DNA of 64,000 nt from Escherichia coli. GTDB lineage: Bacteria; Pseudomonadota; Gammaproteobacteria; Enterobacterales; Enterobacteriaceae. A program made the position numbers. This document shows positions 1 through 12,000 of this stretch, one piece after another (positions within the stretch are counted from its first letter, which is position 1; each line of letters starts with the position of its first letter). The stretch is taken from the NCBI RefSeq assembly GCF_011045215.1, contig NZ_CP049201.1; one strand, 5' to 3'.

Positions 1-3000
1 GCCGGTACCCGTCAGTATGCAGACCTGCCGGGAAGCTGGGGGCTGATACGTCTGCTTGAGATGGCCCGACGGAAAGCCGCACCGGGCGTTGCCAGTGGCT
101 GGAGCCTGAGCTGGCAGGCGCAGGACGGTCGTATGCTGAATTACACACTGCGAACTGAAGCGGGGGAAGGGCCGCTTGTATTGCTGAAACTCCGCAATTT
201 TGTTCTGCCGGAAACGGTTTTCGAACTCTCCGGTACGTCAGCGTTTACAGGCAATGACGAAGATGCCGGGGATTCCGTGGAGGAGACTGACTGATGGCTT
301 CCATTCATTCGCTCCTCAGTGCATGCCAGACGACACCCCGGGATGTGGCTGAACCGGCTCAGGTGCGTATTGTGCTGTGGGATAAATGGCTTGCTCCCGT
401 GACGCCAGATAATCCCGCAGGTGATGATGCGGGGTACGATGATGATTTTCAGCAGATGCGTGAAGAGGTCAATAAATTCTCCGGAGCCGATGCCGGAATA
501 GTCAGCCAGCTTGCAGAAAAATTACTGACCACCAGAACCAAAGATATCCGGGTGGCGACCTGGTATATCTGGGCCCGTCTGCGGCAGGATGGTGAAAAAG
601 GTCTGGCCGACGGTCTGGAGCTGCTGACCGGTTTGTTGCAGCGTTTTGGAGAGCACCTGCATCCACAACGGTCACGGGCCAGGAAGGCGGCGCTGGAGTG
701 GTTATGCAGCGCCCGCATACTGGACAGTCTGTCTCTGTATCCGGAGGTGGTGAAGGCGGATACCCTGCGCATTGCCGGGGCGCTGTGGCTGGCAGAACAG
801 ACCTTTACGGATGAGGCTTCCGCCCCGGTGCTGAACGGGTTATATCAGGCACTTGAAAATCGCCTGATGAAGGCCGGTGGTGTTGATGCAGTGGTGCCTC
901 AGGAGGCTGCCGCGCCGGCACCGACGGTAACATCCGGCAGCGTCACGGCACTATCTGCCATCACCTCCGGACAGGAACTGCTGTCACAGGCTCGTGTTCT
1001 GGCAAAATATCTGCGTGACCAGCCTGAGGGCTGGCTGGCGGCTCATCGGCTGATGAAAAGCGTCCGGCATGACACGCTGCATCAGTTACCGCCGTTATCT
1101 GCTGATGGACGGACCCGTATTGCCCCACCGGGGCCGGACCGGCGTGCGTCACTGAAACGGTTGTATCTGCAGCAGAACTGGTTGTCACTACTTGAGCAGT
1201 GTGACGATATGTTTGCCCGGGGAGCCAGTCATCTGTGGCTGGACCTGCAGTGGTATATTCATCAGGCGCTGTTGCAGACCGGAAAAGAAAATTATGCTGC
1301 CATTATTCAGTATGACCTGAAAGGATTGCTTCTGCGCCTGCCGGGGCTTGAGACACTGGCTTTTAACGACGGCATGCCGTTTGCCGATGACGTGACGCTG
1401 AGCTGGATACAGCAGCAGGTGATGGAGTGTGGTGAACGCTGGGCGGAAGAACTTTCTGTAACGATAACGGCAGCTCCCGGAGATAACGACATTTTATCTC
1501 TTGAGCCGGAAGCCCTGCAGATTGCGGATAATGAAGGAACAGAAGCCGCTTTAAGCTGGTTACAGGCACGTCCCGGTATTCAGTCTGACCGCAGCAACTG
1601 GCTACTGCGCCTGTTGATGGCCCGTGTTGCCGAACAGACTGGAAAAAATGACCTTGCCCTGCATCTGCTTGCGGAGCTGGATGAACGTGCAACCCGGCTG
1701 ACCCTGTCACAATGGGAACCTGAACTGGTATTTGAAGTAAAAGCCCGCCGCCTGAAACTGTTGCGTATGAAGTCCGCAAAAACTGAAAGTGACAGAGTGC
1801 GTCTGCAACCTGATATGGAACATCTTCTTGCCGGGCTTATTGCTATTGATGCTGCCAGAGCTGCTGTGTTGTGCAATCCGGGAAGTTCATGAGATGTCTG
1901 AATTATATTCATGTGTAATCTGATTAATGAAATCCGGCCTGCAGTTCAGTTCGGACGATTGTTTGAAGTATGGTTGAAGTCAGAGCGCGAGTCTCCGGAA
2001 CAGTTAGCTTTATTCTGAGAAGATAATGGACGATTTAACCCTGCGTTATTTTGACGCTGAAATGCGTTATCTGCGTGAAGCCGGAAAGGCGTTTGCACAG
2101 GCTCATCCCGATCGGGCGGCGATGCTGGATCTCGATAAAGCGGGTACGCCTGATCCCTGCGTGGAGCGCCTGTTTGAAGGTTTCGCCTTTTCCATGGGAC
2201 GACTGCGCCAGAAAATCGACGATGATTTGCCGGAGCTTACTGAAAGTCTGGTCAGTATGCTCTGGCCTCATTACCTGCGTACTATCCCGTCCCTGTCGGT
2301 GGTGGCACTGACTCCCCGGTTATCCGTCATGAAAATGGCTGAAACCGTACCAGCCGGACTGGAAGTGACTTCCCGCCCTGTTGGCCCCGGAAATACAGTC
2401 TGTCGTTACCGTACCACCCGGGCCATACCACTGAATCCACTGGCAGTGGAGAAGGTTGTTATGACGACGGAGCCGGACGGGCGTTCAGTGTTGAAAATAG
2501 GTTTTGCCTGCAGTGAACTGGCTGACTGGTCTCAGGTCGATTTGCATCGTCTGAGCCTGTATCTGGCAGCAGAAGCCCCGGTCAGCAGCACCCTTCATCT
2601 GATGATGACAAAGCGTCTGGCTGCGCTGTATCTGAGGCTGCCGGGAAATGATGAGCGGATCCGCATTGACGGATGGTTTTCTCCCGGTGGTTTTGCAGAA
2701 GAAGATCGGCTGTGGCCGAAAGGTGACAGTGCTTTCAGTGGGTATCAGTTATTGCTGGAATATTTCACCTTTCGGGAAAAGTTTATGTTTGTTCATCTGA
2801 ACGGACTGGAGAATGTTTCTCTGCCGGCAGGTATTTCCGGATTTGATCTTGAGGTGGTGCTGAGTCAGCCCTGGCCGGCAGATTTACCTGTGACAGACGA
2901 TGCCCTGTGTCTGCATTGTGTGCCGGTGATTAACCTTTTTACGCTTGAAGCCGATCCACTCATCATCAATGGGCTGGAGAGCGAATACCTGCTGCGCCCG

Positions 3001-9000: not shown

Positions 9001-12000
9001 GATTTTGACAGTCGCTGGCTGGCCCTGATTGCCCGTCTGTTTGATAACGCATCCCGTTCACTGCTCCTGATGTACGATGATGCCCAGTCCATTTACCGAC
9101 GGGAGCGGGCCCTGAACTTTTCTCTGGCCAGTGTGGGGATTCAGGCGCAGGGACGCACTTCTGTCCTGCCGGTCAATTACCGTAATCCGAAACGCATTCT
9201 GCACTTTGCTTATGCATTCTCCCGCGAGTATTTTGAAAAACATCAGAACCGTGAAATACCACTCGTTCAGCCACAGGCGGGTGGTGAAGAGGGCACAGAG
9301 CCGGAAATCCTGCGTTGTGCTTCTGAACGTGATGAAGCCAGACAGGTTGCAGACTGGCTGGAGAAACGCCATGCCCTGTGCGGTCACTGGAGTGATATGG
9401 CTGTTCTGTGTCCGGCAGAGTTTTCAGTGAAACAACTGAAAGAGGTTATGACACAACGCGGGATACCTTTTGCCACCTGCTTTGACAGTGAAGGTAAGAA
9501 GACATACTCGCGACGTAAGGATGTGGTGCATTTACTGACGTACCAGAGCAGCAAGGGGCTGGAGTTCCCGTATGTGGCAGTTATCAATGCGTCTTTCGTT
9601 CACTCTGGTGCAGCGGATGAGTCTGAAGTGATTCCGGTGCTTTATGTGGCGTTTACCCGGGCAACCCGTGAATTACTGGTGACCTGTTACCGTGAAAACA
9701 GTATCAGCCGCCACCTTGAGGATTTTGCATAATACCGGATTATTTCTTTATTCCGGGCTTTCACCATACTGTTATTATCAGGTTTATTTAATTCGCCATG
9801 AACCCGTTATTTAACGATATTCAGATGCGTCTTTTTTATCTGAACCACTCTCCGTACTCCTGGCACTGGAATGTCAGATTCAGACCTCAGGAAGCCGTAT
9901 ATATTGGCAACGATACCTGTCATATCACCATTACCTGTAATCAGTCAGGTTTTCATTTAACCCGGGACGGACAACGGCTGTTCACTGAGCGTTATATCAG
10001 AAACCTTAATGAGCTGTTACCGGTTCTGAAACGGCGGTGGGATGTGACACCGGCAATCATCCGTGCAGTGGAATACCTTTCCCGGGTCCCGGTATCACAC
10101 TGACATTCTTTCCGTAACTGTTAATCATGATTTAATACAGCAACACTGAATCTGCCGATGACTTCTGAAGTGAAACTGAAAACCGGTGGTGACCCCCGGT
10201 CATTACCGGATTATACTGCCCTACGTGATGAAATCAGCAAACTGACCCACCCGGCACGCCCGGATGTGGACTGGCGTTATGTGGAAACACTCTGCCTGCG
10301 TCTGTATGAACACAATGGCGTGGAATTACAGACGGCATCCTGGTACACCATCGCCCGGATGCATACAGCAGGGTTAAGTGGCCTGAATGAAGGGCTGGCT
10401 CTGATTGTGGCGCTGACCCGGCATCACTGGTCAGTGATGTGGCCGCTGAATACCCACGCCCGGCTGGAAATTATTACCGGTCTGTTCAACCGTCTGCAAA
10501 AAACGCTCCGGGCCATGCCACCGGATAACCGTGACAACCTGCCTCAGCTGTATCAGACCGAAACATTCCTGAAGGTACTGAGTGACATATTTATCCGACA
10601 TGAGCTGAAGCAAAACAGCCGGCTGGTGTTACTGGAAAACATGGTGAAGGGATATATCATTCGTCTGGAGAATCAGCCTTTACAGGGGGATGATTCGTCC
10701 CCGGTAACGCTTCCTGCTCAGGCACTCCGGTCTGATGCACCGGATGTGCAGGAACATCAGACCCTGCCGCACTCCCGTCTGGTGTATATTGTTTCTGAAA
10801 CAAAAGCAGAACCCTCCCCCTCCCTTCAAAAGTCTTCACCCACGTTTCTGAAACCGTTTGTGGCTGGTGTCTGTGCGGCATTGCTGGCTGTCAGCATGGC
10901 CATTCCGGGATGGCAGTTTCTGACACAGCCATCACCGGCGGAGCAGCAACTCAGGGCGCTGCTGACCCCCCCACCGGATGTGCTTTCAGCAGACCAGATG
11001 ACACAGCTCAGCAGAATACCCTCACTGTTAAATCATGTGTCAGAGTGGATACCCCTTTCCGGTCAGCAGATAACGCGACTGACAGAACTACCGCCGGCAT
11101 ACAACCTGCAACGCAGTGCGCAGCTGCTGCAGCAACTGATGGTGCTTTTTCCCGATAATCCCCGTGTCCAGGAAATGGTGGATAACTGGCAGAAGAGTGT
11201 AATGAGCCGTGCGCTCCCGGAAGAGGCGATGACGGGCTGGAACGAAGGTATGACCCGCTTACAGCAGCTGGCTGAGCGCCTGAACCGTCTGGATGAACAG
11301 CGGGGAAAATACATAACGGTCAGTGAACTGAAAACGGAGGTGTTTGGCATCATGCAGGCTTTTAACCGGCATATCCCGGCAGAAGAGCAGTTACGTCGCT
11401 ATGGCGAAGCCCGCAACCAGAATGGCAGTGAACAGCAGCAAAAACAGGCTGAAATGGCGCTGAATCAGTTGATTAACCGTTATCAGATGGAACACACAGG
11501 CAATCAGGAGGGGCAGCCATAATGGCTGATTAGATAGGGTAATGTAAAATAATGCAACAATAACGTTTACACAATAAGGTGTAAGCTGAAATTAACTCGT
11601 TCGTGGAATAACCTAATGAGTAAGGTTCTGCTACTTTGAGTTGGATAAGTTATATAGAACAGCAGTCCTGATAGTCAGAAAGAGTTTTTTCTGGGGTGTA
11701 TTTTTATAGGGTGTTAATCTGGTATTTAATTAAAAGACGGAGTTATTTATACTGACATATCAAATAAATAATTTTTAACGACTTTTCTATTTGGCTGATT
11801 GTTTTGCGTTCTTTTTATAAGGTGTTTTATTTTTAAAGGTTTTTTGATGAGATTACATAGTCTTAAAATAAAAGGATTTAAACGTATCCAAACTGCAAGA
11901 GATAATATTTGGTGATACCACGTTTCTCATTGGTGCTAATAATGCCGGTAAAAGTTCTGTTCTGAAGGCCGTTGAATGGCTGCTTTCAGATAAAAAGAAG

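Follow-up and report, generated by a model that had tools for sequence, protein, structure and literature searches.

Genes for a type VI secretion system (T6SS) occupy the first bases of a 64,000 nucleotide (nt) stretch of Escherichia coli DNA (contig NZ_CP049201.1; this whole stretch is termed the window), and a second protein with an ImpA_N domain is encoded some distance beyond the last of them. This arrangement raises the question of whether the locus belongs to a complete secretion cluster or to the remnant of one, and of what the distant ImpA_N protein and the genes that precede it represent. The evidence presented below makes it very probable that bases 1-11522 are the distal third of a T6SS cluster of the Sci-1 type (T6SS-1), joined to an accessory operon that ends in tagA, within an E. 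coli island at pheV. The locus is of an already known type, an ordinary further allele of the Sci-1 cluster of enteroaggregative E. coli (EAEC), the best characterized of all T6SSs. Its value is that it fixes the second ImpA_N protein as the product of tagA, reveals how routinely this gene is mis-split in RefSeq records, and places EAEC accessory genes in the spacer between tagA and the core.

Core genes and type of the locus

We scanned the open reading frames (ORFs) of the window with Pfam and NCBIfam profiles, and the resulting calls agree with the earlier coordinates (Table 1). The profiles confirm each of tssA, tssF, tssG, tssJ and tssE, the genes recognized in the initial annotation. That annotation had placed tssM wholly upstream of the window, which proved incorrect: the first bases encode the end of this gene, which enters the left edge in frame and stops at the point equivalent to the end of the 1129 amino acid (aa) IcmF-family gene of relatives. 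The reading frames of the tssM 3′ end, tssA, tssF, tssG, tssJ and tssE are all intact. In pairwise comparisons with the Sci-1 products of EAEC strain 042, the core proteins have the same lengths and the identities given in Table 1.

Individual proteins carry the expected domains. TssA is of class A, with an N-terminal ImpA_N and a C-terminal VasJ domain, and scores 359 bits against the NCBIfam model TIGR03362 (cut-off 230 bits). TssJ combines the SciN domain with a signal sequence that ends in LFSLSLSGC and thereby supplies the lipobox cysteine. Solved EAEC structures are matched over their full length by TssF (PDB 6GIY, 6GJ1 and 6N38), TssA (6RJU, with matches also to 4YO3 and 4YO5) and TssJ (6IXH, 6HS7 and 3RX9). 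TssA is the cap and assembly chaperone, TssE, TssF and TssG are components of the baseplate wedge, and TssJ is the outer-membrane lipoprotein of the membrane complex.

The core genes had been described as contiguous and translationally coupled. Coupling is plausible for most junctions, since tssM and tssA overlap by 1 nt (TGATG), tssF and tssG by 46 nt, and tssG and tssJ by 20 nt, with a gap of 2 nt between tssJ and tssE; however, it does not extend across tssA and tssF, which are 133 nt apart. The gap marks the place from which a gene has been deleted. EAEC 042 carries EC042_4541 at this position, a 693 bp gene for a 230 aa protein with multiple transmembrane (TM) segments, and approximately 0.55 kb of it is gone from the window between imperfect direct repeats of ~14 nt, TCATGAGATGTCTG and TCATGATATTTCTG. 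The identical 117 bp fragment is annotated in the RefSeq records of E. coli E70 and C5, and EC042_4541 is missing from many otherwise complete clusters, these two included. Because genes for PAAR toxins and DUF1240 proteins occupy the tssA-tssF interval in other genera, it has the look of a slot for variable cargo. Alleles with and without the gene are both common in the Sci-1 clusters of E. coli.

The initial annotation had called for phylogenetic typing of TssF, and we carried out this typing by sequence identity. The window protein is 99.8% identical to TssF of Sci-1 and 24.1% identical to TssF of the Sci-2 (aai) cluster of strain 042, so the cluster is of the Sci-1 type, which belongs to the T6SS-1 sub-family (PMC5048182). 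TssG and TssA are likewise distant from their Sci-2 paralogues (19.5% and 17.2% identity, respectively). On these comparisons, the proposal that the locus forms the distal portion of a genuine T6SS cluster is supported.

The order of genes is also that of Sci-1 in EAEC 042 (EC042_4539-4550), where tssM, tssA, tssF, tssG, tssJ and tssE are followed by a ydcA-like gene, a GIY-YIG nuclease gene, a NERD-UvrD helicase gene, a 101 aa ORF and tagA. Compared with strain 042, the window lacks EC042_4541, carries a frameshift in the nuclease gene, encodes a TagA that is just 86.7% identical and departs mostly in its last ~30 residues, has GGTGG in place of GGTAG in the core of the ops2 site, and has an OLD nuclease gene after tagA where 042 has other genes. 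The insertion site differs as well. E. coli chromosomes match the right part of the window at 99% identity in the speC and nupG region, and a tRNA-Phe gene lies at 53780-53855 with an adjacent integrase-sized ORF; the window therefore represents a pheV island whose far end carries the T6SS. The Sci-1 island of EAEC 042 is at pheU, judging by the title of a work in the reference list of PMC5048182.

Table 1. Positions in the window of the T6SS genes, the accessory genes and associated sequence features. Percentages are amino acid identities.
Feature	Position	Strand	Evidence
tssM, 3′ end (last 97 codons and stop)	1..294	+	Frame 1 open to TGA at 292-294; 99.0% to C terminus of EAEC 042 TssM
tssA, class A, 532 aa	294..1892	+	PF06812 ImpA_N 1e-26; PF16989 T6SS_VasJ 6.3e-73; 99.1% to EC042_4540
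EC042_4541-like membrane protein gene, remnant (last ~39 codons)	1902..2018	+	Comparison with EAEC 042
tssF, 587 aa	2026..3789	+	PF05947 T6SS_TssF 1e-166; 99.8% to EAEC 042 TssF
tssG, 366 aa	3744..4844	+	PF06996 T6SS_TssG 2e-67; 98.9% to EAEC 042 TssG
tssJ, lipoprotein, 178 aa	4825..5361	+	PF12790 T6SS-SciN 1.3e-29; TIGR03352; lipobox LSGC; 98.3% to EAEC 042 TssJ
tssE, gp25-like baseplate wedge protein, 143 aa	5364..5795	+	GPW_gp25 8e-16; 98.6% to EAEC 042 TssE
ydcA-like gene, predicted secreted Cys-rich protein, 133 aa, EC042_4546 homologue	5952..6353	+	Signal peptide MKKIICFLFVGLLFSVQADA; six Cys
Pseudogene of a 414 aa membrane-anchored coiled-coil GIY-YIG/T5orf172 nuclease, EC042_4547 homologue	6509..7752	+	Split ORFs 6509..6955 and 6895..7752
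Hairpin, terminator-like, G+C-rich 12 bp stem	7875..7905	.	Between nuclease and helicase genes
NERD nuclease plus UvrD-like superfamily 1 helicase, 581 aa, EC042_4548 homologue	7987..9732	+	Pfam NERD, UvrD-helicase, UvrD_C; 95.9% to 042 protein
ops2-homologous site (RfaH)	8007..8014	+	GGTGGCTT in place of GGTAGCTT
101 aa ORF directly upstream of tagA, EC042_4549 homologue	9798..10103	+	97% to 042 ORF
tagA, intact, 454 aa	10158..11522	+	ImpA_N 1.4e-17; TM helix; VasL 7.9e-38
OLD-family ATPase/TOPRIM nuclease gene, frameshifted	11847..13662	+	AAA_15, AAA_21, OLD-like_TOPRIM (Pfam); PADLOC Old 1.7e-50

Completeness of the cluster

Because tagA is intact and the end of tssM is likewise intact and in frame, we consider it likely that a complete cluster continues upstream. 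Specifically, tssB, tssC, tssK, tssL, tagL, hcp, clpV, vgrG and a PAAR gene most probably lie directly upstream of the window, to judge from its closest relatives. E. coli C5 is 99.0% identical over bases 1-5800, and directly upstream of this segment both C5 and E70 carry tssB, tssC, tssK, tssL, a tagL gene of the OmpA family, hcp, tssH, vgrG, a PAAR gene and tssM. The six listed contigs that encode an identical TssA, which reach at most 97.9% identity to the window over 11.9 kb, all carry the PAAR gene and tssM upstream; vgrG is found in five, and the sixth contig ends before that point.

The alternative is that the cluster is a non-functional remnant, in which the distal genes survive and the upstream part has been deleted or disrupted. 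We judge this unlikely, and several observations nevertheless count in its favour and against a complete cluster. The distal core (bases 1-5800) reaches a coverage of at least 80% in only 65 of 5426 complete E. coli genomes (1.2%), against 1,088-1,692 genomes with some part of the locus, mostly as tail remnants and usually degraded, so that remnants are far commoner than intact copies. For example, a deletion in O104:H4 runs from tssC to the nuclease gene, O157:H7 retains a NERD fragment beside IS66, and NCTC86, a strain without the T6SS core, has only the helicase gene and a tagA with a genuine frameshift. Approximately 20% of complete E. coli genomes keep the NERD-UvrD helicase gene alone, with or without remnants of tagA. 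Decay is also seen locally: the window has two frameshifts, in the nuclease and OLD genes, the deletion of EC042_4541, and a mutated ops2 core that could lower the expression of tagA. Finally, the window does not reach the upstream two thirds of the cluster, whose presence is something that we infer.

Other features of the same genes argue against a remnant. The six core frames and tagA are intact, and their products are 98-99.8% identical (TagA 86.7%) to functional EAEC proteins. In remnant strains tagA decays, in contrast to its state here, and tssM is still in frame at the window edge. In every relative with an identical TssA, the upstream genes are present for the full reach of the contig. 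The loss of EC042_4541 is shared with the otherwise complete clusters of C5 and E70, and this deletion does not in itself distinguish a remnant. A complete cluster therefore remains the reading that we prefer.

Genes between tssE and tagA

The second ImpA_N protein had been placed 4.4 kb downstream of the core, as a VasL-like protein with a TM helix, and this description holds: 4362 nt separate the tssE stop from the tagA start. Four genes occupy this spacer, the homologues of EC042_4546-4549. In a preprint from the Cascales laboratory, EC042_4547 and EC042_4548 are accessory genes of a T6SS accessory operon, the ops2 site lies between them, and expression of a reporter placed after EC042_4548 requires RfaH, ops1 and ops2 (bioRxiv 10.1101/2025.02.08.637259). 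As is reported for EAEC 042, transcription of the T6SS operon would continue through the spacer genes of the window.

The second of the four genes encodes a nuclease, whose product in the window is predicted to be non-functional owing to a frameshift. In comparison with eight relatives, in which the gene is intact or broken differently, 1 nt is deleted at ~6861 (gene position 354), and a stop follows at codon 149. Since the gene has been inactivated at least two times independently in E. coli, it is dispensable for persistence of the cluster. The protein matches Pfam T5orf172 (4.9e-17) and MUG113, as well as the PADLOC model PD-Lambda-1 (5.8e-88), the last confined to the linker and nuclease segments of the model. 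Positions Y297, G313, R316, E371 and N364, which are assigned as catalytic, are invariant among 82 homologues. Two TM helices are predicted at residues ~12-34 and 46-68 and form a helical hairpin in the AlphaFold2 model. The model of the intact 042 orthologue (pLDDT 83.7) consists of the two N-terminal TM helices, long helices, and the C-terminal T5orf172/GIY-YIG domain.

The position of this gene is widely conserved. Most loci were gathered by way of the nuclease, which was used to scan a genome collection (at least 13 loci), or of the YdcA-like protein, and others came from contig look-ups, a sample biased to close orthologues. It shows that close orthologues are linked to T6SS genes and does not give the fraction of T6SS-1 clusters that carry them. 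In 20 of 21 loci, representing about 13 named genera, the nuclease gene is downstream of tssE and directly upstream of tagA. The arrangement is seen in the window (6509-7752) and, in our numbering, at L011, L013-L022, L024-L027, L030-L032 and L037. The genera are Klebsiella, Enterobacter, Pantoea, Pluralibacter, Huaxiibacter, Salmonella (S. arizonae), Serratia, Tenebrionibacter, Kosakonia, Lelliottia, Hafnia, Pectobacterium and Citrobacter, to which a metagenome-assembled genome of the Enterobacteriaceae is added. The ydcA-like gene keeps its place upstream of tagA together with the nuclease gene, which is usually 45-80 nt from its neighbours; in Klebsiella, Enterobacter and Pantoea, for instance, the ydcA-like gene is followed by a 414 aa T5orf172 gene and then by tagA. 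The exception to the synteny is an N-terminally truncated nuclease copy in Citrobacter braakii. We found no paper that describes the nuclease-tagA synteny in the searchable literature.

Relative to the E. coli queries, tblastn identities are 70-81% for the nuclease, 70-85% for TssE, 57-81% for TssF, 46-73% for TssG, 44-68% for TssM, 51-62% for TssA, 44-59% for TssJ and 41-59% for TagA (with one short partial hit at 75%). These ranges suggest that the nuclease is at least about as conserved as the most conserved T6SS core proteins. Full-length orthologues number one among 72,556 plasmids, where the gene resides inside a T6SS tail on a Citrobacter IncF plasmid, and none among 50,697 phage records. 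The nearest non-orthologous proteins, which are encoded by a Mu-like prophage and by phage phiP27, share only residues ~91/117-413. The N-terminal ~115 residues with the two-TM anchor are specific to the T6SS-linked clade, and the remainder is common to prophage homologues.

These data bear on a second alternative, namely that the spacer is an unrelated anti-phage defence islet that was inserted into an E. coli cluster and separated tagA from its core. Such an origin would fit the defence models matched by two of the four genes (PD-Lambda-1, and NERD+UvrD at 2.5e-141), the OLD nuclease gene that follows tagA, and the prophage location of the nearest non-orthologous nuclease relatives. It would also fit E. 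coli RM14721, which has only a hypothetical 101 aa ORF between tssE and tagA and lacks the ydcA-like, nuclease and helicase genes, and the behaviour of the helicase gene, which is found alone on a plasmid, is limited to a subset of genera, and persists in remnant strains after the T6SS has been lost. However, the ydcA-like/nuclease arrangement extends beyond E. coli to the other genera listed above, the only full-length plasmid orthologue of the nuclease is inside the same T6SS tail, phages yielded none, and the identity of the nuclease equals or exceeds that of every core protein. An E. coli-specific insertion was rejected on these grounds for the ydcA-like and nuclease genes and is improbable as an account of the whole spacer; it is retained for the NERD-UvrD helicase gene alone, for which it probably holds.

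The helicase gene indeed behaves like an independent mobile defence gene, because its occurrence is sporadic, it stands alone on an E. coli plasmid, and it is intact in strains where the T6SS is gone, such as NCTC86. Its retention without the T6SS fits a T6SS-independent role. Where present in other genera, the gene sometimes lies between the nuclease gene and tagA, with an overlap of the tagA start in Hafnia and Pectobacterium. The product, annotated by RefSeq as a '3′-5′ exonuclease', matches the PADLOC candidate C3a187 ('NERD+UvrD') over its full length, and an alternative ATG at 7945 would give a protein of 595 aa. It resembles Nhi-type single-protein nuclease-helicases in joining NERD and a UvrD-like superfamily 1 helicase in one polypeptide, and a role in defence is predicted here; none of the 25 PADLOC matches listed, out of 33, is to the Nhi model.

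If the ydcA-like and nuclease genes are not an insertion, they may have a function in the secretion cluster. We put forward tentatively, and regard as doubtful, the idea that they form a conserved functional part of the Enterobacterales T6SS-1 accessory operon that acts with TagA at the inner membrane. The idea is compatible with the place of the nuclease gene directly before tagA, with its degree of conservation and with its clade-specific N-terminal anchor. A possible mechanism is suggested by PD-Lambda-1, renamed SNIPE, in which a TM segment and DUF4041 accompany a GIY-YIG nuclease that cleaves phage DNA as it is injected (bioRxiv 10.1101/2025.11.03.685801). The N-terminal region of SNIPE sets the membrane partner over which the nuclease stands guard; by analogy, the T6SS version might be directed to the site of the T6SS or of TagA. 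A nuclease so targeted might destroy DNA that enters at a breach of the envelope, or guard against phages that exploit T6SS components. If it were functionally coupled to the T6SS, a contractile injection weapon would be joined to a defence nuclease whose target is injected DNA.

The likeness to SNIPE is partial. Shared features are the N-terminal membrane anchor, the long helical linker and the C-terminal GIY-YIG/T5orf172 domain with its conserved catalytic positions. In contrast, the nuclease has two predicted TM helices instead of one and no detectable DUF4041, its orthologues are fixed in T6SS clusters and not in defence islands or prophages, and the copy in the window is a pseudogene. Pfam gave no DUF4041 match at E ≤ 1 in the intact 042 nuclease, nor at E ≤ 0.01 in 10 near relatives, and proteins annotated with DUF4041 share only residues ~277-410 with the nuclease. 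A Foldseek comparison of the nuclease model with the PDB produced no hit at E ≤ 0.001, the relevant matches being weak ones to Slx1 (GIY-YIG). By these features the nuclease is SNIPE-like but is not a SNIPE.

In Hafnia paralvei, a second nuclease-helicase-tagA trio is located ~7 kb downstream of the T6SS's own tagA (L030, 10001-14498). Beyond it lie genes for Kiwa (KwaA/KwaB), ParB-like genes, and genes for a resolvase and an integrase. This setting suggests that the three genes are able to move as a unit.

The first gene of the spacer had been proposed to encode a T6SS-associated secreted factor. An association is upheld by synteny, a form of linkage that does not show function. The gene occupies the same place after tssE in Klebsiella, Enterobacter, Pantoea, Pluralibacter, Salmonella arizonae and others, with products 60-66% identical. 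The protein carries a Sec-type signal peptide, which argues against its being a substrate of the T6SS. NCBIfam PRK10040 (YdcA) matches residues 1-58 at 1.9e-24, below the cut-off, and PF27300, a model that is not part of the Pfam version used, is recorded for all listed homologues. On these matches, the gene probably encodes a periplasmic protein of the YdcA family.

The 101 aa ORF has no match in Pfam, PADLOC or NCBIfam, and tblastn did not find it in other genera. Within E. coli it stays beside tagA even in RM14721, where the three preceding genes are lacking. Other genera have a 156 aa ORF after tssE that was considered as its equivalent and rejected, as the two are unrelated.

Two candidate expression signals lie near the start of the helicase gene. 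In EAEC 042 the ops2 site reads GGTAGNNT (L010, 11921-11928), a sequence that the corresponding part of the window lacks, its homologous site being mutated. The change is A to G at the fourth base and is found in the window and in most relatives, including E70, C5 and NCTC86; among the loci compared, GGTAG is kept only in 042 and O104:H4. Upstream of this site, the hairpin at 7875-7905 has a perfect stem and is followed by TTTTATT on the minus strand, according to a terminator scan, and by a run of seven T residues ~10 nt downstream on the plus strand; it could be a bidirectional terminator within the accessory operon. This hairpin was the sole stand-out in the promoter and terminator scans, whose counts were not above those of shuffled controls. 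Rfam gave no match at E ≤ 1 in bases 1-14000, and a repeat search returned nothing beyond short matches at chance level.

TagA and the surrounding island

TagA (type VI accessory gene with ImpA domain) is defined by an ImpA_N domain, a hydrophobic segment and, at the C terminus, a VasL domain (PMC6745524), and it stops the polymerization of the sheath and holds the sheath at the distal membrane, functions that were shown for the EAEC and Vibrio cholerae proteins (PMC6745524; PMC7545191). All three sequence features of the known proteins (EC042_4550 and V. cholerae VCA0121/VasL) are found in the window protein. ImpA_N (PF06812) covers residues 8-109, VasL (PF12486) covers residues 302-443, and a hydrophobic helix, TFLKPFVAGVCAALLAVSMAIPGWQ, spans residues 229-253 (Kyte-Doolittle, 19-residue window, peak 2.0). 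On this architecture, the second ImpA_N protein is identified as TagA. Its function in the window, comprising TssA binding and the stopping and holding of the sheath, is one that we infer from the architecture and from identity to EC042_4550. TagA would capture TssA once the sheath arrives at the other side of the cell, ending polymerization and holding the sheath extended. In V. cholerae, tagA follows tssM directly; in Enterobacterales, it instead follows a nuclease or helicase gene. An identical copy of the window TagA is not recorded in our collection.

The remaining alternative, a duplicated or degenerate TssA, is very improbable and is excluded by domain content: although the protein shares ImpA_N with TssA, has a sub-threshold match to TIGR03362 (85.7 bits versus the 230 bit cut-off) and has orthologues annotated in RefSeq as three pseudogene fragments, it is without the C-terminal VasJ domain, carries the VasL domain and the TM helix, is 86.7% identical to the experimentally studied TagA EC042_4550, and corresponds to 'fragments' that form one uninterrupted ORF in 042 and E70.

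RefSeq/PGAP annotates tagA as three pseudogene pieces (ImpA_N, 'POTRA' and VasL), even in EAEC 042, where EC042_4550 is an intact 455 aa ORF. The gene is split in this manner in 042, E70, C5 and RM14721, and mis-split copies are found at L010 (EAEC 042) 14071-15438, L001 29060-30436 and L033 38651-40015. Because the pieces in 042 and E70 form a single uninterrupted ORF, the three-piece pseudogene label in these strains is an annotation artefact. For the same reason we rejected the notion that tagA is intact in the window but a pseudogene in its relatives.

Beyond tagA, the OLD-family gene has its nuclease domains but no intact frame. An extra A at 11897-11898 causes loss of the frame after codon 17, and relatives encode 604 aa. 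Genes downstream of tagA vary among genomes and are often those of defence systems, such as Kiwa in Hafnia and CBASS in Serratia plymuthica.

Further into the island, the segments 16817-20750 and 21656-31182 contain an IS21-family insertion sequence (istA/istB, minus strand), an IS4/Tn5-family transposase gene, and a type I restriction-modification system with a gene for a 1093 aa DEAD-box helicase after it. The hsdR gene of the system is apparently split (21656..23617 and 23720..25072) and represents the third apparently disrupted defence gene on the island.

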